A stretch of 64,000 nucleotides of DNA from Methanocaldococcus sp. 16A (GTDB lineage Archaea; AGJL01; Methanococci; Methanococcales; Methanocaldococcaceae): the NCBI GenBank assembly GCA_049860595.1, contig CP187551.1; one strand, written 5' to 3'. A model generated the notes under the pieces. That model did not search any database, was not told where the DNA came from, and saw nothing but the letters and a program-made list of their open reading frames with translations. Shown in pieces: positions 5,744 through 64,000 of the stretch (position 1 is its first letter; every line of letters begins with the position of its first letter). The translations under genes were made by a program, and so were the position numbers.

Positions 5744-7590
5744 ATTTCATACCGTATCGGTCTGATTTTAATACTCCTCCAAAATCCTTCAGTTTCATCA
5801 TGAATCTCATTTCCATACCGAATCGGTCTGATTTTAATCTCCAGTCCTTTTTTGTTTATTGGCCTCCTCCAATAATTTCCATACCGAATCGGTCTGATTT
5901 TAATGATTACAATAGCGCAAAAATAAACTTAAAAAAATGACTAAAAATTTCCATACCGAATCGGTCTGATTTTAATTTTCTATAATCAACAATAAGCTTA
6001 GCTTTCTTCACATTATTTCCATACCGAATCGGTCTGATTTTAATACCATTTCGTAGTTTTTAGCTATTTTGTAATACTTATTTCCATACCGAATCGGTCT
6101 GATTTTAATTTACAATTTTGGGAGGATGTTTGTAATTATAAAAGAATATTTCCATACCGAATCGGTCTGATTTTAATGTATCCATTTCTTTAATCTCATT
6201 AATTGTTGCTAAAATATTTCCATACCGAATCGGTCTGATTTTAATCAAGATGCAATATCTCAAAATGCTGTGCAAGTGGATTTCCATACCGAATCGGTCT
6301 GATTTTAATTTAATATTCAACTCCATTCCATTCATTAACCTCCTCTATTTCCATACCGAATCGGTCTGATTTTAATCAAGATGCAATATCTCAAAATGCT
6401 GTGCAAGTGGATTTCCATACCGAATCGGTCTGATTTTAATTTAATATTCAACTCCATTCCATTCATTAACCTCCTCTATTTCCATACCGAATCGGTCTGA
6501 TTTTAATCAAGCAATAGCAAGTGGTTCAATTGATATTAGAGCTATTTCCATACCGAATCGGTCTGATTTTAATATTATTGATTGTGTTGGGTCTTGCTGC
6601 TGTCCTTGTGTTGCATTTCCATACCGAATCGGTCTGATTTTAATAGATAAAAGAATGTTCAATGACAAAGAAACATCAGTAAATTTCCATACCGAATCGG
6701 TCTGATTTTAATTTGTATCCAAACTTGTTCCATTAAAATCATCAAAAAACATTTCCATACCGAATCGGTCTGATTTTAATAGAAACTAATACATAACCTT
6801 CTTTGAGCCTTTCTATTTCCATACCGAATCGGTCTGATTTTAATTAAAGATATAGGTTATTTGACATGGTGGGGAGAACAATTAATATTTCCATACCGAA
6901 TCGGTCTGATTTTAATTTTTAATATTATTTTAATATTATATACAATATACCTATTTCCATACCGAATCGGTCTGATTTTAATGGAGGTGGTCAATAATGG
7001 CTTTTGGATTGGAAAGAAGTCAATTTCCATACCGAATCGGTCTGATTTTAATATAAAGAAGAACTTGAAGAGCTTTTAAAAGGGCTTCCATTTCCATACC
7101 GAATCGGTCTGATTTTAATCATTGTTGATTTTATAAGAATTGTAATTTATATTTGTATTATTTCCATACCGAATCGGTCTGATTTTAATAGTCTTATGAG
7201 GATTAATGCAACAATAATTGCAAGATTTCCATACCGAATCGGTCTGATTTTAATACATTTTTTAGCAATCTCTATTATCTCTTTTTCCAAATTTCCATAC
7301 CGAATCGGTCTGATTTTAATTCCTCTTTGCTAATTTCTCAATTTTTTCAATATCTTCATTTCCATACCGAATCGGTCTGATTTTAATTTCCTTATTTGAC
7401 TGCATAAACCACAACCTCCCAAAGATTTCCATACCGAATCGGTCTGATTTTAATACATTTTTTAGCAATCTCTATTATCTCTTTTTCCAAATTTCCATAC
7501 CGAATCGGTCTGATTTTAATTTAAAGTATTTAGCATAATATCATTTCAGTAATTATGAAAATTTCCATACCGAATCGGTCTGATTTTAAT
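5744..7590 (-). CRISPR. CRISPR array, 28 repeats / 27 spacers; 30 bp repeat ATTTCCATACCGAATCGGTCTGATTTTAAT (+ strand)
   Basis: Exact repeats from 5809 to 7590 with ~34-42 bp spacers. The degenerate repeat at 5744-5772 (1 deletion, 1 substitution) marks the trailer end, so transcription is inferred on the minus strand. Confidence 0.99.
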
Positions 7591-42523: not shown

Positions 42524-42724
42524 TTACTCTTCTATTGAGATTGCCTGGTCTGGACATTGTAATATACAGAGATTGCACTTTGTGCATTTTTCAGCATTTA
42601 CTGGGATTGGTGGATAGATACCTTTTTTATTCAACTTTTTTGATTTTTCAAATACTCCTCTTGGGCATACTACAATACATATATCACATCCTTTACAGAA
42701 ATTTTCATTTATTTCTATCTTCAT
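42524..42724 (-). CDS. 2x[4Fe-4S] ferredoxin (2-oxoacid:ferredoxin oxidoreductase delta-like)
   Basis: CKGCDICIVVCP and CTKCNLCILQCPDQAI. Confidence 0.9.
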   Translation of the reverse strand: MKIEINENFCKGCDICIVVCPRGVFEKSKKLNKKGIYPPIPVNAEKCTKCNLCILQCPDQAISIEE

Positions 42725-42748
42725 TATTATCCCTCTATACCATTTTTG

Positions 42749-42840
42749 ATATTAGGACTTTCGCAGGGATAAATATTAAAAGGCATATTTGATGCTTACG
42801 GCATCATATTTTCATTACTCAATATATAAAGTCCTAATAT
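42749..42840. repeat. Palindromic intergenic mini-element
   Basis: ATATTAGGACTTTCGCAG ... AAAGTCCTAATAT; inner GATGCTTACGGCATC hairpin. Confidence 0.8.
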
Positions 42841-42841
42841 A

Positions 42842-43066
42842 TTACAGCACTTTTTTATAGCATTCCAGATTAAAAATGATTGTGGTTTTAAAATTCCTTC
42901 AATTGGATTTAAGAATAGAATATTATTTTTAATTAAAAATTCTTTTTATATCTTCGTCTATGTGGTATTCATCAATTATGTAATCATCTTTAAATAATTT
43001 TAATGCTTCAACAATTTTTTCATAATCAATATCAGCTATCAAAAATCTTATTCTACAAGAAGTCAT
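42842..43066 (-). pseudogene. Frameshifted C-terminal remnant of a Methanocaldococcus archaeal-ATPase family gene
   Basis: Manual translation: DYEKIVEALKLFKDDY... then a frameshift to [33 protein letters not shown]; absent from the ORF track. Confidence 0.7.
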
Positions 43067-43688: not shown

Positions 43689-44849
43689 TTATTTTTCCCC
43701 TCCTCCATGCTTACTTTTTCTTGGTCTTATTTTTATGATTTTTAGAAATTCTTTTTCATCATCTATAAAGACACATTCTCCTTTATTTAAATCTTTAATA
43801 TACACTTTTAATTCTTTTCCCATATATTCCTGGTTGAGTTTGTTTAATGCATTTATATCTTCTCTATTTGTTACTTTATGTGCAAAAATAATATCACATT
43901 GACTTAAAACCTCATTGTCAATTGCTGAGGGTTGTTGAGTAGCTATAACTAAATTTAATCCTGGCTGTCTTCCTTCCTTTGCCCATCTTATTAATATTTC
44001 TTTTGACAATGTTGATTTTCCAGAAGGAATGAAATTGTGTGCCTCATCAATAAACATCCAAACTTTCGGCATTTTTGATGGTAAATTTAACATTTCCTTT
44101 TTTCTTGATTTCAATCGTTGATTAAATAGATACTTTGCAATTATTGATACAATTAAATCTCTCAATCCGTATCTTCCACTTTCAATAACACTCAAATCAA
44201 TAACATTTATTGCGTTTCTTTCAAAAATTTCTTCTATTGGTATATATTCATCTGAAAAAATACCCCATTTTTTTGCCATATTTAGACGGTTAATTAATGC
44301 TTCTTTTGTGGTTTCTTTTGATTTTGTATCCCTTTCTACTTCATAAATGATATCATCAATTGTAAAAAAATCTTTTTTAATATTATCAATTGCTCTATAT
44401 AATGCGATTCCCATCATTTCATTTATATTCAAATTAAATAGATCACACCATCCTTCTGCTGAAATATCTGATGGATTTAACAAAAGTTTTTTGAATTCTA
44501 CTCCTCTATTTTTCATTTCTCTTATAACATCTTCATCAAATCTTTTGTCTATTTCTCCAGGAACTATCAATTTTACAGGATATCTTTCTGGATATAAATC
44601 CCAATCCCAAAGGTTTTCTTCTTGTTCTTCATTAGGCTCTACCATAGTCCAAAATATCCCCATCGGATCAATTATAATCTTTAAATAATCTGGATGTTTT
44701 TCTTGAATTTCTTCAACTAAAACTCCCAATGTATAGCTTTTTCCACTACCTCTTTTACCACAAATAAAAATTGCATGAGATTTTGAAGCATCTATATAAA
44801 CATCTTCTCCTAACATATCTTTTAGTTTTTCTCTTCCAATAAATAACAT
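43689..44849 (-). CDS. HerA/FtsK-family (DUF87-like) ATPase
   Basis: GKRGSGKSYT, IIIDPMG, FIDEAHNF, EGRQPG arginine finger, ATQQP. Confidence 0.9.
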   Translation of the reverse strand: MLFIGREKLKDMLGEDVYIDASKSHAIFICGKRGSGKSYTLGVLVEEIQEKHPDYLKIIIDPMGIFWTMVEPNEEQEENLWDWDLYPERYPVKLIVPGEIDKRFDEDVIREMKNRGVEFKKLLLNPSDISAEGWCDLFNLNINEMMGIALYRAIDNIKKDFFTIDDIIYEVERDTKSKETTKEALINRLNMAKKWGIFSDEYIPIEEIFERNAINVIDLSVIESGRYGLRDLIVSIIAKYLFNQRLKSRKKEMLNLPSKMPKVWMFIDEAHNFIPSGKSTLSKEILIRWAKEGRQPGLNLVIATQQPSAIDNEVLSQCDIIFAHKVTNREDINALNKLNQEYMGKELKVYIKDLNKGECVFIDDEKEFLKIIKIRPRKSKHGGGEK

Positions 44850-44852
44850 AAT

Positions 44853-45803
44853 CTACCCCTCAATAATAATTAAAGGCACAAAACACTCCTCAAATGATAT
44901 ATTTCCATGAGAACCTTTTTTATATTTTTTTGTAAAATTCCACTTTATACCATGATCAGCTGTAATTACTATAAGATAAGACTGATTTGTTTGATTTAGA
45001 ATATCTATTAAGAGGTTTATATTTTCAAAGATTTCTTTTATTCTATTAATTATTCTTTTTTTACTAACTTCCCTTAATTTATGTGCATCATCATCTAATC
45101 CAATTTTGTAAATTTGAATATATTTTTTTGATAGTTTATTTTTAGATATTATATTATAAATGTCCTCATCATAATGAAAAATGTTCTTTTCACTTATATA
45201 TCTAAATAAAATATCGGTTAATGTATTTTTTCTATTCCAATATGTTTGTCCATATCCTTTATATCCAATCTTATAAAGTTCCTTTGCAATAGGTATGCCA
45301 TTTTTTCCATAAACTATATTTTTAAGCCCATTTTCAGTCGTAGTTTTTCCATTAACAAATATAGGTTCAGCACTATAATTTATGTCTGCATTTATATAAT
45401 CCCAGTAAGATAATCCATCAATAAGATACAATATAACTGTTTTTGGGGTTTTAGTATTAACATAATTAATGATATAATCTTTAACATCTTTTTGTGTTCT
45501 AACATACTTTTCAATTAAATTATATTTTTCATTAATAATTTTATTTAATTCTGGTGTAAAAGGATTATGGTCTATTTCATAAATAGGTAGCCTATAGTCA
45601 AATTTATCAGTTATAACAAATTTTTTTTGAGGAAGTTCTTTATTTGGATTATCAACCATTAACCAAAAATCATTATATGAGATATCTTCAAAATCAAAAA
45701 ATAGAAGAGAAAGTTTATGTTTTATTTTTAAGTAACATGGAGTTTTTATCTTTTTTATTTCTTCCTTACAATTATTTCTACATTCTCCATATTCAATAGA
45801 CAT
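44853..45803 (-). CDS. PglZ-like alkaline-phosphatase-superfamily phosphoesterase
   Basis: LYLIDGLSY, LDDDAH, VITADHG and HGNISFEECFVPLIII, in PglZ order; start uncertain. Confidence 0.8.
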   Translation of the reverse strand: MSIEYGECRNNCKEEIKKIKTPCYLKIKHKLSLLFFDFEDISYNDFWLMVDNPNKELPQKKFVITDKFDYRLPIYEIDHNPFTPELNKIINEKYNLIEKYVRTQKDVKDYIINYVNTKTPKTVILYLIDGLSYWDYINADINYSAEPIFVNGKTTTENGLKNIVYGKNGIPIAKELYKIGYKGYGQTYWNRKNTLTDILFRYISEKNIFHYDEDIYNIISKNKLSKKYIQIYKIGLDDDAHKLREVSKKRIINRIKEIFENINLLIDILNQTNQSYLIVITADHGIKWNFTKKYKKGSHGNISFEECFVPLIIIEG

Positions 45804-48800
45804 TTTAATGTCCCCTCAATAGACATATTTAGATGTTTTGCAATATCTTTAATTGAAATTTCACCATATTTATTCAATAACTCAATTATTTTCATTTCTT
45901 CTTCTTTTAACTTACCAAATCTATTTTTTTCAATAATTTCTCTCTTTATCTCTTTTCTAACTTTATCTAACTCTCCCCATATTTCAAGTATATTAGATTT
46001 TACTTCTTCAATAACATTTACTATATTATCAATATTATCTTTATTTATAACATCAATATCTATGCTATTTAATTTATTTTCTATTTCATTTAGTGTTTTT
46101 AGATAGTTTTCATCATTGTCCAATTTTATTTCTACGTCTGTCTTTAATGATACTATGTAATCATATATTCTGTTTAAAACATCTTGAAGATACGTTCTTA
46201 CATTTCTTACGAGATTTTGATAAGCTATATCTCTATCTTCAATAGTAATTGGTTCTCTGTATGAATATGAAGGGATATCTAACAATTTTAATGTATTGGA
46301 CAAAAAGTTCATTTTTGTTTTGATTTCATCTTGAATCCTATTAAATTCATTTCTTAAATTACTCTCTTTTTTCTTTATGTCTTTTTCGATTAACTCTATA
46401 TCTTTTTCAACATCTTTATCCATGTATAAATAGTTTTCACCATCTCTTGCAAAGTTAGTTATTATTTCATTTATTAATTCGTTAAATCTTTCATACTCTT
46501 CATCAATGTCAATATACTCCTTATAAGCATCTATTTTTTCATATAATTCTTTTAATTTTCTAAGAATAACTAACCAAGATTTAAACTTGTTATATTTCTC
46601 ATTGATATTGACATATTCCTTTTTTAATTCATTCATTTTTTTATTAGCTATTTTTAAAACTTCAGCAAGATTTTCAAGATCTCTTGAAGATGTTATAGTT
46701 TCTCTTAATTCTAATAACTCTTTTGATAGTATATTACATTTCTTTTTTGTTATCTTTATTTGTTCCTCTAAATGTCTAACTATCCCCCCTAACGCATAAT
46801 GTGTCTTTGTAATATCCTCTTTTAAATCTTCTATTTTTCTTTTTAGTTCATTAGTTTTTTCTCCTGTTTTTAAAATTTCATTTAACAATTCTTCCTTATT
46901 TTTAGTTATCTCATTTTTAATTATTTCGTAATATCCTCTTAAAGTTCTCTCCCAACTTTCTAAAAGTTCTAAGTCTTTGTATAATAAATCAGAATTTTTC
47001 TGATTCAGAATCTCTTCTTTTTTAGATAGATTTATAGGAATCTTTGGAATATCCTTTCCATATTTTTTATAGAGATTTACAACATTCCTTGCAAGTTTTT
47101 CAACTTCATCAAATTTATTTAAAACATCAGTATTTGTTATCTCCTCAAGCTTAAATATAAATCCTTTATCGATTTCAATATATCTTCTACTTTCAAGGAT
47201 TTTTAAAATTTCTTTAACTTCATCTTCAGTATATCCTAAAGACATTCCATACTTAATTATTTCATCCATATGTATTGGTTGCGTCCATTTTTCAATAAAT
47301 TCTTTTAATATTTTTTCTTCAAGTGAATGTTTTTTTAATCTAACTATAATTTTATCTTTTTTACCCCACTCTTCTAAGTGTATTAAATCCTTCCATTTTC
47401 CACTTTTACACTCTTCATCGAACCCTGCAACACTTGGATTTTTACTACCAGTTAATTTGGAAACTAAGTCCTTTTTAGTAGTTTCGAATTTGTCACCTCT
47501 TCTCTTTGAGATCGGTAATGATTCTAATAATATTCTATATCTTTCTAAATCTCTTTGCCAGTTTGTAGAATGGATTAAAGTTCTATAATCTTTAAATTTA
47601 TATTCACAAATTCTATTAAATATTTCTTCAACCATCTTTTCTAATCGTGCCTTTAACTCATATTTTTCTGCTAATTCATCTGAGAACAAAAATCTTTTTA
47701 AATATCTTATAAGAAGTGACTTTAATGAATCTATTTCACCCTTATATTTTATGTAATCCCCTTCTTTTTCTTTAATTTTGTCAAGATAATCTAAGAGACA
47801 CAGCATAAACATTGGAGTAACTTCTTGTGGTTTAACATACTGTTGAAGTTTTTTTAACTCACCAGGCAAATTATTCTCTCCAACTCTCTTTAAAACATTA
47901 AATTTAAAGATTACATCTCCATTTTTATAGTCAATTATTAAATCATTATTTTCTATATTTTTATCTAATATAAATTTAAACTCAATATCTGGTGAAATAT
48001 CACCTACTAAATTTTTAATAAACTCCATACCTATTTCTCCAGGTTCTTTCTTTAAAGAATATACACTAACAGTTCTAAATGGATATTTCTTATTAAAAGT
48101 CCCAGTTAATAAATGATAATATCCATAGTTTATAGGATATTTTAAATCGAATCTCCACCCTATAATTTGAGATCCTTTTTTCTTTGGAAAGATTTCAGGT
48201 AATAAATGATTTATAAATGCATTAATCATTTCATCTTCCCAAGATTCATCAAATACATGTCTAAATTTTCTTATGTGTTGTTCTACATAACTACCAGAAC
48301 TTTCGTCTAATAATCCTCTTAATGTATATCCTTCAAGGGCATAAACAATTTCAGTTCCATAATAAGCATCTGAAAGTTCTTCAAACTCATTATATAAGCT
48401 ATACTTTTTTATTAAATCATCAGATACTCCTCTTGGAAATGCTCCCAACAATTTAGTAACTTTTCTTTTTTCTTCAGAATTAACTTTACTTAGAGACAAA
48501 CCTTCATTTAAAGCATCTAAATATTTTTGTTGTATATATGCAATTTTGCCATTTAAGATATCATCAACAAAATCAAATACAGAATAGGGTTCTAATTTTT
48601 CTTTATATTTTGTGCAAGCACATTTAAATGCTCCAATAACTGTCCTTGGACCTTTACCTAAATCATCTCTTGAAGAGATCTCACCAATACTTCTTAAACA
48701 GTCCTTTGTTATAATTTCATAAGGATAAAACCCTAAAAGTTCGCCATATTTGTTCCACAATTTTTCTGCAAAGTCTACATTATATATATTTACTAAATTT

Positions 48801-49594
48801 AAATAGAATCCATCTTTTCGTAATCTATCAATTAAATCTCCAGCTCTTATGCTTAAATCCTCTTCTTGATAATCTGGAATTATAAACAATATCCCCAATC
48901 CTATATTACTAATACTAAGTTCAAAAATAAAATTTCTTAAATCGTTAATAATTTCCATATTGTTTATTCCTTGCACTTCATCTACAAAAATTGCTAATCC
49001 GTCATAATGTTCTTTTATAAGATCATATATTTCCTTTAAAAAATTCATTAGGTCTTTTGGGGTTATTGATATAATTAATTTACCTTTTTCTATGAAACTA
49101 TTAATTATTCTTCTAGCTTCATCTTTTGTTAAGTGTTCTTTTTTTGCTAACTCATCAATCTCTTTTTCTATACTTAATGTTTTATATTTTCTATAAATTT
49201 CTTCAATTTTTTCAACATATTCGGGATATTTATATTTATAAACATACTTTGTCCAACCATAAACTGCATCCATGATTGTATCAAGTTTTCTATCGAACTT
49301 AAATGGGGGAATAGATAATATATTATTATTTTTGCAATATTCCCATAAACTCAGTGCCTTACTTGTCTTTCCATATCCATAAGGAGCAGATATATATCCT
49401 TTAACAGTTTTTCCTTTTTTAATTTCTTTTACAAATCTACGATCAAAGTCTTCATCATCAACTTTTATATATGTTTTTAAATGTTTTTCATAATTATCTG
49501 CAACTAAATCAGGATTGTTTATTAAATTTTCAACTGACTGAGTATCCACTACAGGACTCTTATTTATTATATATTCTAATGCACTAATATCCAT
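45755..49594 (-). CDS. Large P-loop ATPase with long coiled coil (BrxC/PglY-like)
   Basis: Walker A APYGYGKTS, Walker B AIFVDEVQ, GPRTVI; K/E-rich helical C-terminal half; terminal HTH-like ISIKDIAKHLNMS. Start placed at ATG 49594 after a GGGGGAGGG RBS. Confidence 0.75.
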   Translation of the reverse strand: MDISALEYIINKSPVVDTQSVENLINNPDLVADNYEKHLKTYIKVDDEDFDRRFVKEIKKGKTVKGYISAPYGYGKTSKALSLWEYCKNNNILSIPPFKFDRKLDTIMDAVYGWTKYVYKYKYPEYVEKIEEIYRKYKTLSIEKEIDELAKKEHLTKDEARRIINSFIEKGKLIISITPKDLMNFLKEIYDLIKEHYDGLAIFVDEVQGINNMEIINDLRNFIFELSISNIGLGILFIIPDYQEEDLSIRAGDLIDRLRKDGFYLNLVNIYNVDFAEKLWNKYGELLGFYPYEIITKDCLRSIGEISSRDDLGKGPRTVIGAFKCACTKYKEKLEPYSVFDFVDDILNGKIAYIQQKYLDALNEGLSLSKVNSEEKRKVTKLLGAFPRGVSDDLIKKYSLYNEFEELSDAYYGTEIVYALEGYTLRGLLDESSGSYVEQHIRKFRHVFDESWEDEMINAFINHLLPEIFPKKKGSQIIGWRFDLKYPINYGYYHLLTGTFNKKYPFRTVSVYSLKKEPGEIGMEFIKNLVGDISPDIEFKFILDKNIENNDLIIDYKNGDVIFKFNVLKRVGENNLPGELKKLQQYVKPQEVTPMFMLCLLDYLDKIKEKEGDYIKYKGEIDSLKSLLIRYLKRFLFSDELAEKYELKARLEKMVEEIFNRICEYKFKDYRTLIHSTNWQRDLERYRILLESLPISKRRGDKFETTKKDLVSKLTGSKNPSVAGFDEECKSGKWKDLIHLEEWGKKDKIIVRLKKHSLEEKILKEFIEKWTQPIHMDEIIKYGMSLGYTEDEVKEILKILESRRYIEIDKGFIFKLEEITNTDVLNKFDEVEKLARNVVNLYKKYGKDIPKIPINLSKKEEILNQKNSDLLYKDLELLESWERTLRGYYEIIKNEITKNKEELLNEILKTGEKTNELKRKIEDLKEDITKTHYALGGIVRHLEEQIKITKKKCNILSKELLELRETITSSRDLENLAEVLKIANKKMNELKKEYVNINEKYNKFKSWLVILRKLKELYEKIDAYKEYIDIDEEYERFNELINEIITNFARDGENYLYMDKDVEKDIELIEKDIKKKESNLRNEFNRIQDEIKTKMNFLSNTLKLLDIPSYSYREPITIEDRDIAYQNLVRNVRTYLQDVLNRIYDYIVSLKTDVEIKLDNDENYLKTLNEIENKLNSIDIDVINKDNIDNIVNVIEEVKSNILEIWGELDKVRKEIKREIIEKNRFGKLKEEEMKIIELLNKYGEISIKDIAKHLNMSIEGTLKCLLNMENVEIIVRKK

Positions 49595-50081
49595 ATACCC
49601 TCCCCCTAAAAATTTTCCATAAATCAATATTTGAATTTTGAATACTAACATTTATATTTTTTCCAATAATTGGAGATAAATTATTCAACACTTGTTTCAC
49701 ATCATATAAATCCAATTTTAGCTCCACTCCATAATCTAAAATTTTCTCTTTTGAGATATATATTACTTTTTTTGCTTTTAGAGAGACCATTCTTCTTACT
49801 TCTCTCCAATCATACAATGTTCCATTATCAATAATTACATTTATATTTCTTGCATTATAATTTTTAAATATTTCTTCATTTTCAAAATATACAAAGTTAT
49901 TATTTTTTGCAAATACCCATCCTAAAAATGTCTTTCCTACGCCTTTTTTTCCATAAAGATTAACAACATCATCATAAATAAGAAATTCTTTCAATTTTTT
50001 ATAAGCTTTTTTTTGGTTATGAGTTAGCCAATCATAAGAATAATTAGTTTTGATATAATTTATTAATGAAATATAATCCAT
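49584..50081 (-). CDS. Small P-loop NTPase-fold protein (BrxB-like position)
   Basis: VVNLYGKKGVGKTF Walker A; VIIDN Walker B lacking the catalytic Glu. Confidence 0.7.
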   Translation of the reverse strand: MDYISLINYIKTNYSYDWLTHNQKKAYKKLKEFLIYDDVVNLYGKKGVGKTFLGWVFAKNNNFVYFENEEIFKNYNARNINVIIDNGTLYDWREVRRMVSLKAKKVIYISKEKILDYGVELKLDLYDVKQVLNNLSPIIGKNINVSIQNSNIDLWKIFRGRVYGY

Positions 50082-50089
50082 AATCTCCC

Positions 50090-50830
50090 CTATAATATAT
50101 CCTCAAAAGTCCATGTTCTTTTTAATCGTACATACTTTCCAAACATTTTTATTGAAATCTCAACAAAATCATAGATGAAATCAAGATCTTTCAAGAGATT
50201 ATCTAATGCTTTATCTTCAATCAAGCAAAACTTACAGAGTTCTTCAATTTTATTCTCATCTAAAAGCATTAATGAACCGTATTCCTCTCCCCACTGTTTT
50301 TTATATAAGTAATCAATACCCCATAATAATAGATGTAGTTGGCAGTAATCTCTAAGGTTAAACACATTATTTTCATCAATTGGAGATGGATAAAGTGACT
50401 TAATAAAGTTAATTGCTCCACGAACACTATTACTACTAAATGATATACTACCAAATCCTTCATCAAATGCTCTTTCTTTAACTTTTTGTTCAATATCGTT
50501 ATGATTTATTTTTTTACCCATATATTCTTCCCATAATATGTTAATTACACATCTATATGACCATCCTATTGGAGAGGTGGAAGTATAAAGTTTATAGTGA
50601 AGATAATTATTAAACATCTCATCATCCATTTTTAAAATATTTTCAATTTCATTATTATCTTTAACATTTATTAACTTGTTCATAATTGTATAGTTATCAT
50701 CTATTATGCTTGATTTAATTTCCGGAAATATTTTCTTTAATTCAGATTTTTTTAAATTATTCCCATATTCAAGAAATTTTCTTATAATTTCTGGCTTAGC
50801 GTTATGTTGAATATGGAAACTACCTTTCAT
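50090..50830 (-). CDS. Hypothetical protein (BrxA/DUF4007-like position, possibly wHTH DNA-binding)
   Basis: 246 aa ORF with ATGA overlap to the TGT gene; family inferred from position and size only. Confidence 0.55.
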   Translation of the reverse strand: MKGSFHIQHNAKPEIIRKFLEYGNNLKKSELKKIFPEIKSSIIDDNYTIMNKLINVKDNNEIENILKMDDEMFNNYLHYKLYTSTSPIGWSYRCVINILWEEYMGKKINHNDIEQKVKERAFDEGFGSISFSSNSVRGAINFIKSLYPSPIDENNVFNLRDYCQLHLLLWGIDYLYKKQWGEEYGSLMLLDENKIEELCKFCLIEDKALDNLLKDLDFIYDFVEISIKMFGKYVRLKRTWTFEDIL

Positions 50831-51753
50831 TCTTTCACCATTTCATATAGGACAATTATATTATGTAATGATCTATATATTTTAAATTTTCTTAAATTAT
50901 TTAAATTTTTACAAAAGTAACACTCATGACCATTTCTAAGATTTTCAATTAAATAATCATATCCAATATAATTTTTTTGTGAAGTTCTTGGAGATTTGCC
51001 AGTTATATTAATAGTTCGTGAATTGGGAAAATATATATCTCCGAATCCACTTGCCTTATCCCAACTACTACTATCAAAACTATCTACATAATCTTTAATT
51101 TTATTTACAGAACTACCTCCACCAATCCCAAAAGCATGTAATTCAAATCCATAATCTTTTGCTAACATAGATAGATACTTTAAATTTTCCAAACTTTCTT
51201 TAGTTAATCTGTTAATTTGATTATTTTTTCCACAAGTACCAAAACTTCCAAAACCTAATCGTCTAACATTTAAATCTGCATAATTTTTAACACAATAATA
51301 TATCATCTCTTTATTAATTCCCTGAACTACAGGAACAAATTTTTTTTCTAATTTTCCGTTAAACTCTTCAGCAAAACTCTTTGCAAAATAAACTGTCTCA
51401 TAAACTTTTCCCCATGCAGTCTCTACATTATCAGATGAAACTGGTGGAGAATCTGGTAGAACATACCAATCTCCCCATTTATTATTTTCATAAAATTTTC
51501 TCAAAAATGAAAATAGTTGATGTATTTCAAACTTCCCTTGTTGAACATAGTATCCTCCACTATCAAACATAACAGTTGTTTTATATTTTTTCTTTAAATT
51601 TTTAATTTCCTGTATAGTTCCTTCTGATGAAACTATCGGAGTAAAGATTACATTTTCAAATGCCCATTTTTTTGGCTCATGTTTCTTTAAAAGTTCAACC
51701 ATTCTCCTAATCTGACCTGGGGAAATCGTCAATGATGCATAAAATTCCACCAT
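50827..51753 (-). CDS. tRNA-guanine-transglycosylase-fold protein (TGT/DpdA-like)
   Basis: MFDSGGY, LPDSPP, VPVVQG, LGFGS, LHAFGIG, DSFDSSSW, and Zn-site-like HECYFC...HN. Confidence 0.82.
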   Translation of the reverse strand: MVEFYASLTISPGQIRRMVELLKKHEPKKWAFENVIFTPIVSSEGTIQEIKNLKKKYKTTVMFDSGGYYVQQGKFEIHQLFSFLRKFYENNKWGDWYVLPDSPPVSSDNVETAWGKVYETVYFAKSFAEEFNGKLEKKFVPVVQGINKEMIYYCVKNYADLNVRRLGFGSFGTCGKNNQINRLTKESLENLKYLSMLAKDYGFELHAFGIGGGSSVNKIKDYVDSFDSSSWDKASGFGDIYFPNSRTINITGKSPRTSQKNYIGYDYLIENLRNGHECYFCKNLNNLRKFKIYRSLHNIIVLYEMVKE

Positions 51754-51755
51754 TT

Positions 51756-52337
51756 TTACCCCTCTAAATATTTAGCCATTAATACTAAATCCTTATTACC
51801 TCTTGTATGGTTTTTTAAAATACCTTCAATTATAAAACCATTTTTTATAAAAAATCTAAGCCCTCCTTCATTATCTTTAGGAACCTCGGCATATATCTTT
51901 TTCTTTTTTAATTTTTTAGCTTTTTTTTCCAAAAAGTCAATAAAATATATACCAAGAGATTTATTTTTAAATTTTTTATCTATTGCAATATAATTAATTT
52001 TTAGATAATTTGGTTTTTCTCCATAAACTACAACACCAATCAAATCATTTTTATGGAAAATTCCTGCTACATTTATAGTTTTAGAGGTCGTAATCCATTG
52101 CTTTATTGATGATTTATAAACAAAGCCCCAAATATCTGCATAATTTAACAATATCTCTTGAACCCTGTCAACATAATTAACATCATCAATATCTTTAACT
52201 ATAATTTTATTTTTAATTTTTTCTATTTGTTTCGATGACTTTTTGTTTTTATTTTTGTTATTACTTTCAATTAATTCAAATTTTTTATATAAATCATAAA
52301 TTTCAAAGATTATTTTTTGTTGCGTATTCAAGCCCAT
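51756..52337 (-). CDS. GNAT-family acyltransferase
   Basis: INYIAIDKKFKNKSLG motif A; DNEGGLRFFIKNGFIIEG motif B. Confidence 0.88.
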   Translation of the reverse strand: MGLNTQQKIIFEIYDLYKKFELIESNNKNKNKKSSKQIEKIKNKIIVKDIDDVNYVDRVQEILLNYADIWGFVYKSSIKQWITTSKTINVAGIFHKNDLIGVVVYGEKPNYLKINYIAIDKKFKNKSLGIYFIDFLEKKAKKLKKKKIYAEVPKDNEGGLRFFIKNGFIIEGILKNHTRGNKDLVLMAKYLEG

Positions 52338-52983
52338 ATTTTCTCGCCCCTATTGCATTTATAAATTGTGGATTTTTAGGAATATAAACATCTTTTTCAG
52401 TAATTTCCTTAAAATATTTCACGAATGCCTCATTTTCTGCAACTCCTCCAATCAAGGCAATAGTATCGCATTCAAATGGGTTCATGTTAGCTATTTTCTT
52501 TGCTATAGTGTAATTTACAGATGATATAATATCTCTGATAGTATAGCCATTCACAAGGTAGTTAATTATTTCAGAAATTGAAAAAACAGCACAAGTGTTA
52601 TTTAATTTTAATGGATTTTTTGAGTAATATTTTCCAAAGTTCTCTATAGGAACATCTAAATACATGGCTATAGTTTGCAAAAATAGTCCAGTACCAGCTC
52701 CACATTTATCATTCATTACAAACTCTAATGTTTTTGTATTTATTATCTTTGTATCCTGTCCTCCAACATCAATTATAACATCAACTTCTTTATCAACACC
52801 GTATATAGCAGCAGTAATTTCAGTTATATGATTTCTAAATCTCTTTCTGAAATATCCTGTTGCGAAGACATCTCTATCATTATATTTCTCCAATATCTCG
52901 TTCAATTTAATTATGGAATATTTTTTGAAACCTTGCTCATCTGCAATTTTTATATTTGTTGAACCAACATCAATGCCTATCAT
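52303..52983 (-). CDS. Acyl-CoA dehydratase activator (HgdC/BadF-G type ASKHA ATPase, [4Fe-4S])
   Basis: GIDVGSTNIK, ATGY, DVGGQDTK, MNDKCGAGTG, CAVF, GGVAEN, NAIGA. Confidence 0.92.
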   Translation of the reverse strand: MIGIDVGSTNIKIADEQGFKKYSIIKLNEILEKYNDRDVFATGYFRKRFRNHITEITAAIYGVDKEVDVIIDVGGQDTKIINTKTLEFVMNDKCGAGTGLFLQTIAMYLDVPIENFGKYYSKNPLKLNNTCAVFSISEIINYLVNGYTIRDIISSVNYTIAKKIANMNPFECDTIALIGGVAENEAFVKYFKEITEKDVYIPKNPQFINAIGARKYGLEYATKNNL

Positions 52984-52985
52984 AA

Positions 52986-53918
52986 CTACCCCAACAACTC
53001 TATAAATGCTTCAATTCTCAGCTTTGTTTGTTCTGGTGTTTTTTGGGGGATGTCCCCCTCTATTGTTAGTATGGGATAATCAATAAATTCCCTAAGAATC
53101 TCATCTTCTAATTTATGATGACAATTCATTTGGGTATAATGAATTACTCCATCAACTTTTCTCTTTTTTAATTCTTTTTTTAGAATTTTTATTCTTTTAG
53201 TTATGTGATTTGCAAAACTGTATGTTGAATAACTATTTACTATACTCTTTATTGAATCTCCTCCCATTCTTACAAATTCATAAGCAAGTTCATTATAAAC
53301 ACAATGTACATTTATTTCATTTAAGTATTCATAAAAATCGCTAAAAATTGGTGGAATTCCTATTATAGCAATCCTATGTCTATATTCAATGTTTTCATCT
53401 TTGTTTAATATGTTATAGATTTCTTTTTTGTATGCATTTAAATCTCCTTTTAAATCACTTGCAGAAATTGTAATATAAAAGGCATCTTTTCCATTTATTT
53501 TGTCTTTATAGCATAATTCATCTACTTTTTTTGCAAGTTTTTTTATTTGATAAACTTCTCTTAAAGTAGTTTTATCAATATTTCCACCCAAAAAATTAAT
53601 AAGTTTTTTTATTTCATTTTCAAAATGTTTTTTATCTCCAAATTGATAAAAGAAATAATGTGTTGGAATTTTTTTCTTTAGTTCTATCTTTTCAGCATCA
53701 ACAAGAGAATTTTGACAATCACCTCCCGCAACAACAATTAATGTATCAATTTTAATTTCATCTTTTAAAATCAATTCTCTCCAAGTTGCAGTCCATGCAC
53801 ATAGTTTATTTTTAGGATAAATTTTCGATTGTGGAACTAAATTATTTAGATCTATAGGAGTATGACCTGCAGAATAAATAATTTCTGGTGGTACTATAGC
53901 AGTAATTCCAACTTTCAT
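52986..53918 (-). CDS. 2-hydroxyacyl-CoA dehydratase family protein (HGD-D)
   Basis: PPEIIYSAG, Cys in KLCAW / GGDCQN / QMNCHH, VDGVIHY, PILTIEGD...QTKLRIEAFIELL. Confidence 0.88.
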   Translation of the reverse strand: MKVGITAIVPPEIIYSAGHTPIDLNNLVPQSKIYPKNKLCAWTATWRELILKDEIKIDTLIVVAGGDCQNSLVDAEKIELKKKIPTHYFFYQFGDKKHFENEIKKLINFLGGNIDKTTLREVYQIKKLAKKVDELCYKDKINGKDAFYITISASDLKGDLNAYKKEIYNILNKDENIEYRHRIAIIGIPPIFSDFYEYLNEINVHCVYNELAYEFVRMGGDSIKSIVNSYSTYSFANHITKRIKILKKELKKRKVDGVIHYTQMNCHHKLEDEILREFIDYPILTIEGDIPQKTPEQTKLRIEAFIELLG

Positions 53919-63843: not shown

Positions 63844-64000
63844 CCCTGCCGGGCCCTCGGGCGATTAGTACCGGCGGGCTGAACGCCTCGGGTAGAGCCC
63901 TCGGCGCTTACACCCCCGGCCTATCAACCCCCTCTTCTAGGGGAGCCCTCGTCCCCGAAGGGACTGGCCGCCTATTTTCGGGGAGGGTTTCGGGCTTAGA
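63844..64000 (-). rRNA. 23S rRNA, 3' end (partial)
   Basis: GC-rich; reverse complement reads TCTAAGCCCGAAACC...GGGGTTGATAGGCCGGGGGTGTAAGCG...GGTACTAATCGCCCGAGGG; 3' end approximate; 63803-63843 is probably the processing stem. Confidence 0.95.

Follow-up and report, generated by a model that had tools for sequence, protein, structure and literature searches.

What mark would a compact block of nine genes in the archaeon Methanocaldococcus sp. 16A write into DNA, and from which base would it be made? The block lies at positions 43689-53918 of a 64,000-nt stretch of contig CP187551.1, the whole of which is called the window here; the listing of open reading frames (ORFs) places all nine genes on the minus strand, and they are numbered 1-9 in the order of transcription. 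The answer favored here, with a probability of roughly 0.55, is that the locus is an archaeal member of a predicted defense class, BREX-Related Capture (BRC), and carries its own base-supply module, in which genes 1 and 2 would reduce preQ0 (7-cyano-7-deazaguanine) to preQ1 (7-aminomethyl-7-deazaguanine) for use as a DNA mark. Sequence comparisons and structural models assign genes 3 and 4 to a predicted modification part and genes 5-9 to a predicted sensing and restriction part, and genes 1 and 2 are, by functional analogy, a candidate preQ0-to-preQ1 reductase that is not homologous to QueF.

BRC was introduced by Rakesh and Krishnan (Nucleic Acids Res 2026, PMC12839542; preprint DOI 10.1101/2025.10.09.681413) in a computational study whose main text places it in 45 taxa and gives it seven components: PglZ, an ORC/Cdc6 AAA+ ATPase with DUF6079 (BrxC-like), a STAND NTPase (BrxB-like), a DUF4007 protein (BrxA-like), a HerA/FtsK protein, a GNAT acyltransferase, and a tRNA-guanine transglycosylase (TGT). 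As listed there, the seven match genes 3-9 one to one, and in the window an HGD-D-like Fe-S protein and its activase come in addition. An earlier note on this DNA had read the block as an operon related to bacteriophage exclusion (BREX) systems, with a TGT that exchanges guanine, and had taken the combination to be undescribed. The anatomy and the BREX/TGT reading are supported; the novelty is not, as the same set of seven is already in print as a computational prediction. The terms "dehydratase", "QueF", "preQ1", "Druantia" and "Methanocaldococcus" have no occurrence in the main text of that article, whose locus list sits in its supplements. The nine genes of the window are as follows.

Gene 1, 52986-53918, minus strand, 310 aa: Fe-S protein of the HGD-D (2-hydroxyacyl-CoA dehydratase) family
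Gene 2, 52303-52983, minus strand, 226 aa: ASKHA-type ATP-dependent electron-transfer activase, HgdC/BcrAD type
Gene 3, 51756-52337, minus strand, 193 aa: GNAT acyltransferase
Gene 4, 50827-51753, minus strand, 308 aa: divergent TGT/DpdA-like transglycosylase
Gene 5, 50090-50830, minus strand, 246 aa: protein without a family match
Gene 6, 49584-50081, minus strand, 165 aa: small P-loop NTPase
Gene 7, 45755-49651, minus strand, 1298 aa: BrxC-like ATPase of the ORC/Cdc6 AAA+ type, containing a long helical region and ending in a winged helix-turn-helix
Gene 8, 44853-45803, minus strand, 316 aa: PglZ-like phosphoesterase of the alkaline-phosphatase superfamily
Gene 9, 43689-44849, minus strand, 386 aa: HerA/FtsK-type ATPase

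The co-orientation and tight packing described in the earlier note are evident from the coordinates: gaps of 2, 2, 8 and 3 bp separate genes 1/2, 3/4, 5/6 and 8/9, and overlaps of 35, 4, 68 and 49 bp join genes 2/3, 4/5, 6/7 and 7/8. The gene sizes given in that note agree as well, and its figure of about 1280 aa for the large ATPase fits a start at the second Met of gene 7 (49594), which gives 1279 aa and shrinks the gene 6/7 overlap from 68 to 11 bp. This is probably the true start, the listed ORF beginning 19 codons too early (window 49594-49651), because residues 1-17 have a predicted local distance difference test (pLDDT) value below 50 and homologues align from about residue 20.

The modification part comprises gene 3, a GNAT (PF00583, 8e-8), and gene 4, which matches the TGT family PF01702 at only 0.0022, under the gathering score, and the DpdA family PF23859 at 0.021; one homologue (P0062) reaches the latter with 27.6 bits against a cut-off of 27. 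Gene 4 has at least 248 homologues, some of them fused to a GNAT. In a 15-sequence alignment of the TGT-like family the FDSGG motif, the Asp of SFDS and the H-x-C-x2-C...H motif are invariant, and the family profile aligns these motifs with the region of the catalytic Asp and Zn site of the archaeosine TGT 1iq8 (E 0.0048). The TGT-fold protein named in the earlier note has kept its catalytic Asp and Zn motif, and its sequence predicts an enzyme that replaces guanine in DNA by a 7-deazaguanine.

Across 185,579 scanned species genomes, 80 loci around TGT homologues were recovered, many of them truncated by contig ends; tblastn searches with the nine window proteins and an all-against-all clustering of 1,106 ORFs served to compare them. 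Of the 80, 65 contain a GNAT and 31 have it fused to the TGT, so that the two proteins, which together correspond to the GNAT/TGT modification pair of BRC, are tightly coupled. The substrate of a GNAT must offer an amine or another nucleophile, and preQ0 has no side-chain amine that it could use. The published proposal (PMC12839542, main text) is that BRC inserts preQ0 as Dpd systems do, leaving dPreQ0 in DNA; the small NTPase would then replace DpdB, the GNAT would have another substrate, and genes 1 and 2 would be accessory or act after insertion. The archaeal hosts do make preQ0 (QueC is present) and some members of the TGT family reach the DpdA cut-off, as P0062 does, which agrees with this proposal; however, it leaves the GNAT-TGT fusions unexplained. 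On the reading favored here, gene 3 would add an acyl group to the aminomethyl side chain of preQ1, as the free base or once it is in DNA.

The source of such an aminomethyl group is suggested by genes 1 and 2. Gene 1 matches HGD-D (PF06050, 7.1e-32), and gene 2 matches BcrAD_BadFG (PF01869, 5.9e-24) and the activase model TIGR00241 (1.7e-38, 132.6 bits against a cut-off of 125.4), whereas a match to QueF (PF14489) was found neither in these two proteins nor anywhere in the window genome. Twenty aligned homologues of gene 1 share three invariant Cys residues, C40, C68 and C266. In the account of these proteins given in PMC7317905, a pattern of three Cys denotes [4Fe-4S] subunits with one open iron site, of the dehydratase type, and a motif of seven Cys, for a double cubane, belongs to the small-molecule reductase DCCP. 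A double-cubane cofactor was considered for gene 1, which matches NCBIfam NF040772 at 9.8e-12, far under the cut-off, and was rejected because only three Cys are invariant. Gene 1 is the only PF06050 gene in the block, where a second HGD-D subunit (alpha/beta, as in HadBC) was not found; elsewhere in the genome, about 131 kb away, the family matched only a distant paralogue (33% identity).

These features would also suit a true 2-hydroxyacyl-CoA dehydratase with its activator, whose enoyl-CoA the GNAT would transfer onto a base or a protein. Membership in PF06050 and TIGR00241 speaks for such an enzyme, as do the use of acyl-CoA donors by GNATs and the three-Cys pattern typical of dehydratase-type [4Fe-4S] subunits (PMC7317905). 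However, there is one HGD-D gene here against the two cluster-bearing subunits that PMC7317905 gives for HadBC, and the genomic settings of the pair, described below, also count against a dehydratase.

Genes 1 and 2 are part of the BRC unit, because they co-occur with it strictly in Methanococci and adjoin it again in a rearranged locus. Orthologues of gene 1 (at least 77% identity) occur in exactly five of 40 Methanococci genomes, and these are the five with the TGT (G000, G003, G007, G010 and G036); G004 and G038 have fragments, and whatever else matched is a paralogue with an identity of about 30%. At the Methanosarcina UBA7 locus (L008) the pair adjoins the other end of the system, after HerA instead of before the GNAT. 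The gene 2 homologue is always adjacent to that of gene 1 in the loci examined, except in L096, where the contig ends.

It might nonetheless be held that genes 1 and 2 are unrelated metabolic neighbors, or that the whole block is a cluster for tRNA or RNA modification and regulation, with no role in defense. The defense role is a prediction from sequence context, members of the gene 1 subfamily (about 310 aa, 47-54% identity) are frequent outside BRC in Methanoperedens, ANME-2 and Thermoplasmata, and the flanks are housekeeping genes: Cbf5 upstream and, on the downstream side, a cupin, GTP cyclohydrolase III, a Dus-like protein and HemA. Against this stand the strict co-occurrence in all five Methanococci and the adjacency in the Methanosarcina locus, together with the patchy distribution (five of 40 Methanococci), the low G+C content of the block (0.245-0.265 versus about 0.30 in the flanks), and a fragment of gene 1 beside Cbf5 in G004. 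Furthermore, such partners as BrxC-like, PglZ-like and HerA proteins are typically seen in defense aimed at DNA, and elsewhere the TGT/GNAT/BrxC-like module is paired with DruE, DruF and DruL of Druantia. Taken together, a non-defense cluster or a chance neighborhood is very improbable.

The G004 fragment (C1:600443-600592) covers residues 9-65 of gene 1, contains a stop codon, and lies in a relative that is free of the island. In another island-free genome, G014 (L102, 2524-2646), 123 bp spanning the start of gene 1 are retained beside Cbf5. Because remnants of gene 1 adjoin Cbf5 in both genomes, the evidence suggests that the island was lost by deletion in the relatives that keep them. The closest island-free relatives, G001 and G005, have sequence resembling window 42530-42937 within about 1.5 kb of Cbf5.

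The metabolic setting of genes 1 and 2 is seen most clearly where they occur apart from BRC. Among 151 sampled Methanosarcinia genomes, seven have a gene 1 homologue and six have QueA; all six are among the seven, and the seventh is the BRC-bearing genome. The QueA-bearing genomes are G142 (L097), G114 (L098), G104, G164, G170 and G196. Five of them were tested, and QueA and QueH were present in 5/5, whereas QueG above its cut-off and QueF were each found in 0/5. The conversion of preQ0 to preQ1 is therefore the only step without a known enzyme there, since QueA and QueH are present and QueF is absent. The pair lies beside FolE2 in three of the six fetched Methanosarcinia loci and beside QueA and a full-length bacterial-type TGT in two (L097 and L098), and no BRC genes were found within about 10 kb of it in any of the six. 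QueA gave no match in four archaeal control genomes and was found in 0/40 Methanococci genomes. Judged by gene content, some Methanosarcinia appear to have a bacterial-style queuosine pathway. The same six loci contain the pair with neither a gene 3-like GNAT nor a BRC gene within that distance, in the company of FolE2, QueA or the bacterial-type TGT, which is difficult to reconcile with a dehydratase that feeds the GNAT.

A second line of evidence comes from the haloarchaea. The BRC loci of Halorientalis (L024) and Halorubrum (L030) both carry QueF (PF14489, 9.7e-35 and 1.7e-32); the gene overlaps the start of the TGT by 4 bp in both, and the GNAT is kept after HerA. Counting these two, either QueF or the HGD-D pair is present in 8/8 archaeal BRC loci. 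In a quick tree the six archaeal TGTs group as a single clade (SH-aLRT 95), and therefore the two types of reductase gene replaced one another within one lineage. For genes 1 and 2 and QueF the same reaction is predicted, and in the haloarchaeal loci QueF occupies the equivalent position in the operon. The likeness is, however, one of functional analogy and not of family: QueF is an NADPH-dependent preQ0 reductase of PF14489, and genes 1 and 2, which match PF06050 and PF01869, would make up a two-component Fe-S system dependent on ATP.

Both alternatives raised so far for genes 1 and 2 are weakened by this pattern. A dehydratase serving the GNAT is clearly improbable, since the haloarchaeal loci retain the GNAT yet have QueF in place of the pair; the radical dehydratase that the earlier note saw in genes 1 and 2 is, given this and the queuosine-gene context, less likely than a preQ0 reductase. 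Insertion of preQ0 as the final base leaves the reductase genes of all eight archaeal loci unexplained and is unlikely, and a variant in which preQ0 is reduced after insertion leads to the same final product as the reading favored here.

In bacteria the picture differs. Among 72 bacterial loci the HGD-D pair was found in none, and a divergent QueF-like ORF in one. This ORF (L082, 15436-15888, Chloroflexus islandicus) scores 26.2 bits with PF14489, slightly under the cut-off, and lies between two copies of the BrxC-like gene. QueF is above its cut-off in 24 of 33 bacterial host genomes. The idea that every BRC host encodes QueF was tried and failed for 10 of the 33, all Chloroflexota. These ten have no gene 1 homologue, and eight of them also have no relative of the L082 ORF; the canonical tRNA TGT is present in 10/10 and QueC above its cut-off in only 1/10, so that they must salvage or import a queuosine precursor.

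From these observations a mechanism may be proposed. The host, which has QueC and lacks both QueF and QueA, makes preQ0 for archaeosine. The HgdC-type activase (gene 2) would then spend ATP to drive a low-potential electron into the three-Cys [4Fe-4S] cluster of gene 1, which would convert the nitrile of preQ0 by reduction into preQ1's aminomethyl group, the task performed by QueF in bacteria. The TGT-like enzyme would put preQ1 in the place of guanine in host DNA; acylation of the aminomethyl group by the GNAT, before or after insertion, would mark the DNA as self. Finally, the BrxC-like complex, with the small NTPase and the 246-aa protein, would sense unmarked incoming DNA, HerA would translocate it, and the PglZ-like protein would attack it. 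We know of no report of N-acyl-7-aminomethyl-7-deazaguanine in DNA. In its simplest form the argument is that BRC needs preQ1, which bacteria already have; archaea stop at preQ0 for archaeosine and would therefore have to bring a reductase with the system. A broader proposal, given somewhat less than an even chance, is that genes 1 and 2 represent a new class of ATP-driven Fe-S nitrile reductase, the archaeal enzyme so far missing for the conversion of preQ0 to preQ1, that would serve both a horizontally acquired queuosine tRNA pathway (bacterial-type TGT, QueA, QueH) in some Methanosarcinia and GNAT-acylated preQ1 in BRC, the TGT/GNAT/BrxC-like cassette being portable and joined either to PglZ-HerA or to DruE.

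The assignment to BRC depends further on genes 5-9. In the gene 7 family the Walker A residues G92/G94-K95-T96 and the Walker B residues D224-E225 are invariant, and gene 7 ends in a winged helix-turn-helix (HTH_24, residues 1253-1294, Pfam). Gene 7 itself matched neither BrxC nor DUF6079 in the Pfam scan, and a profile of its N-terminus had 0 matches among the PDB sequences; PF10923 (BrxC_BrxD) gave sub-threshold matches in 23 of 29 family members. A model of the N-terminal 520 residues (pLDDT 87.7) was compared with known structures by Foldseek, and the four best matches were BrxC of the Acinetobacter BREX system (9zll/9zdx, E 3e-6), in keeping with the BrxC-like ATPase of the earlier note. 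In the VIA comparison BrxC gave the longest alignment (375 residues, Z 14.9, root-mean-square deviation (rmsd) 6.2), and ORC2 gave Z 17.0 with rmsd 4.5 over 262 residues. As modeled, gene 7 corresponds to the BrxC-like ORC/Cdc6 AAA+ ATPase of BRC.

For gene 8, Pfam gives weak matches to Phosphodiest (0.0031) and PglZ (PF08665, 0.018), and PF08665 matches 15 of 22 family members below threshold. Residues D129, T156, D237, H241, D283-H284 and H299, at metal and nucleophile positions, are invariant in the family. The best PDB matches of its profile are PglZ-domain response regulators (PorX, E 0.013), and Foldseek with the gene 8 model (pLDDT 86.5) likewise ranks PorX, a PglZ-domain protein, first (3.7e-7) and gives 7.4e-5 for the Acinetobacter BREX PglZ (9zn5_B). 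In VIA, PorX has the longest alignment (232 residues, Z 15.1, rmsd 4.2) and ties with EptC, NPP and SPAP at Z of about 15. The model leaves the alkaline-phosphatase fold certain, and the earlier identification of a PglZ-type phosphoesterase stands on these best matches, with the Z scores tied across families; gene 8 is presumed to be the PglZ-like effector.

Gene 9 matches HerA/DUF87 (PF01935, 4.7e-14) and PADLOC HerA (6e-28), and it aligns end to end with PADLOC mad8 (residues 4-385, 4.8e-25); its identity across bacterial and archaeal loci is 47-58%. It corresponds to the HerA/FtsK translocase of BRC. For gene 6, Pfam, NCBIfam and PADLOC returned only weak P-loop matches, and the family profile matched only the P-loop region of AAA+ chains in the PDB. 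Residues G44, G49-K50-T51 and D85 (Walker A and B) are invariant in 22 members. The main text of PMC12839542 calls this type of protein a STAND NTPase, an active homologue of BrxB, and describes the gene 5 type as a DUF4007/BrxA-like tripartite DNA-binding protein. No match to gene 5 was found in Pfam, NCBIfam or PADLOC, and a search of Atlas gave a weak DpdG-like lead (0.88).

At the level of whole systems, PADLOC-DB 2.0.0 recognized no complete defense system at the locus, as the earlier note had expected, and no BrxC or PglZ among the nine proteins at E <= 0.01; its PglZ model matched weakly, at 2.9e-5, from a bacterial homologue only. Scans of the nine proteins with Pfam, NCBIfam and PADLOC also agreed with that note in finding no methylase, PAPS reductase or nuclease family.

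The related loci show how the parts travel. Of the 80, 79 have the 246-aa protein, 73 the big ATPase, 45 the small NTPase, 42 the phosphoesterase and 41 HerA; the co-occurrence of TGT, large ATPase and PglZ-like genes, which the earlier note had made a test of its idea, is thus widespread. The block of genes 3-9 is seen repeatedly, in taxa that range from Archaea to Chloroflexota and Poribacteria, and is syntenic in 41-45 of the 80 loci, an arrangement that exceeds chance. A second architecture, in 21-24 of the 80, joins the TGT(+GNAT)/246-aa/BrxC-like module, in which a GNAT is often part of the TGT protein, to DruE (PADLOC E = 0 in L017), DruF and DruL, and these Druantia-type loci have DruF/DruL/DruE-like proteins in place of the small NTPase, PglZ and HerA. 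They include L017, L026, L028, L038, L040, L043, L044, L066, L069, L073-L076, L078-L082 and L084, among others. Because the PglZ-HerA and Druantia effector types require at least 6-8 changes on the quick TGT tree, the TGT/246-aa/BrxC-like modification module looks portable. A full-text literature search found no paper in which a TGT module is joined to Druantia-like genes.

Several loci have further genes. Directly upstream of the TGT in L010 (2786-5272) is a large protein in which Pfam recognizes sigma-70 regions 2 and 4 (3.4e-15 and 1.2e-18) and which matches PADLOC MzaA (1.8e-38); it has relatives in 26 bacterial loci in all and no counterpart in the archaeal loci. In Methanothermococcus sp. 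Ax23 (L007, 11684-16028) four extra genes lie between those for the 246-aa protein and the small NTPase, and one of them encodes a RAMP-superfamily domain (PF03787, 2.9e-19). Tandem duplicates of the 246-aa and BrxC-like genes occur in the Chloroflexota loci L028, L032, L038, L040 and L044, and inverted copies in L070 and L082.

Set beside known systems, the locus is closest to BRC, with one difference of perspective: the main text of PMC12839542 gives HerA to every system and TGT/GNAT to some of them, whereas the TGT-centered search finds the TGT, the 246-aa protein and the big ATPase to be the constant part and the effectors the variable one, the reverse of that view. With BREX types 1-6 the window shares the BrxC-like ATPase fold, the PglZ-like phosphoesterase and a self-marking enzyme within the operon; it differs in that its nine proteins show no match to PglX, BrxL or a PAPS reductase (BrxP, type 4), its PglZ-like protein, at 316 aa, is short, it includes a HerA, and the predicted mark is a base exchange and not methylation. 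With Dpd (DpdA-K) it has in common a TGT paralogue whose predicted role is to mark self DNA by inserting a 7-deazaguanine. In contrast to Dpd, the TGT is only weakly DpdA-like (0.021), no PADLOC match to DpdB, DpdC or DpdD-K was found in the nine proteins, and the predicted base derives from preQ1 rather than being preQ0 or ADG.

The resemblance of genes 1 and 2 to 2-hydroxyacyl-CoA dehydratases, benzoyl-CoA reductases and DCCP consists of the PF06050 and TIGR00241 activase pair and the conserved Cys ligands of the Fe-S cluster. Here, however, there is a single short subunit of about 310 aa with three invariant Cys, neither a second subunit nor the seven-Cys motif, and a genomic context of 7-deazaguanine metabolism instead of fermentation or aromatic degradation. 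Druantia shares the TGT/GNAT/246-aa/BrxC-like module in other loci, but the window has no Druantia gene. Gene 9 matches mad8 of the MADS (MAD7-MAD8) system, of which no other component matches.

A number of points weigh against the interpretation given here. The family of gene 1 is known for the dehydration of CoA esters and the reduction of arenes, and nitrile reduction by it was not reported in the literature searched; nor was any relevant paper found that joins QueF with the HGD-D/HgdC family, though such a paper may exist nonetheless. Gene 1 has three invariant Cys and not the seven of the double-cubane motif of the reductase DCCP. The TGT, PglZ-like and BrxC-like proteins of the window all score under the curated Pfam cut-offs, and since VIA gives Z of about 14-15 for all alkaline-phosphatase families, PglZ is not separable for gene 8. 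The DUF4007/BrxA assignment was not reproduced for gene 5: Pfam DUF4007 matched 0/22 members of its family, a null that is no evidence against the published assignment, and the family profile gave no usable match to PDB sequences (one at E 0.92). The phyletic patterns are drawn from related, non-independent genomes and from metagenome-assembled genomes whose completeness is unknown, and in 10 of 33 bacterial hosts there is no encoded source of preQ1, so that its use there relies on assumed salvage. The case for BRC in the window is computational, as is the published description, and the main text of PMC12839542 proposes the insertion of dPreQ0, not preQ1.

Other features of the window are independent of the block. 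The window is AT-rich (about 30% G+C) and belongs to a three-contig genome of 1.62 Mb. A CRISPR array on the minus strand at 5809-7590 contains 27 identical-scoring repeats (Rfam RF01326, CRISPR-DR13, 41.7 bits each) at a spacing of about 66-72 bp, and the 3' end of an archaeal 23S rRNA gene (RF02540) lies at 63845-64000, minus strand, and continues past the window edge. A scan for sigma-70-type promoters and terminators returned 77 promoter-like sites against 83 expected, such a consensus being uninformative for an archaeon.

The seven-gene core of the system is already published, and the new parts are the reading of genes 1 and 2 as a preQ0 reductase and the prediction of preQ1. Genes 1 and 2 are a concrete candidate for preQ1 synthesis in archaea that have no QueF and, if the assignment is true, nitrile reduction would be a new reaction for the HgdC-activated Fe-S family. 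The genomic context suggests that BRC uses preQ1 rather than preQ0, which would account for the close linkage of the GNAT and leads to the prediction of one particular new base in DNA, in a system that is present in genetically tractable relatives among the Methanococcales. Likewise, queuosine in some Methanosarcinia would be unexpected for archaea.

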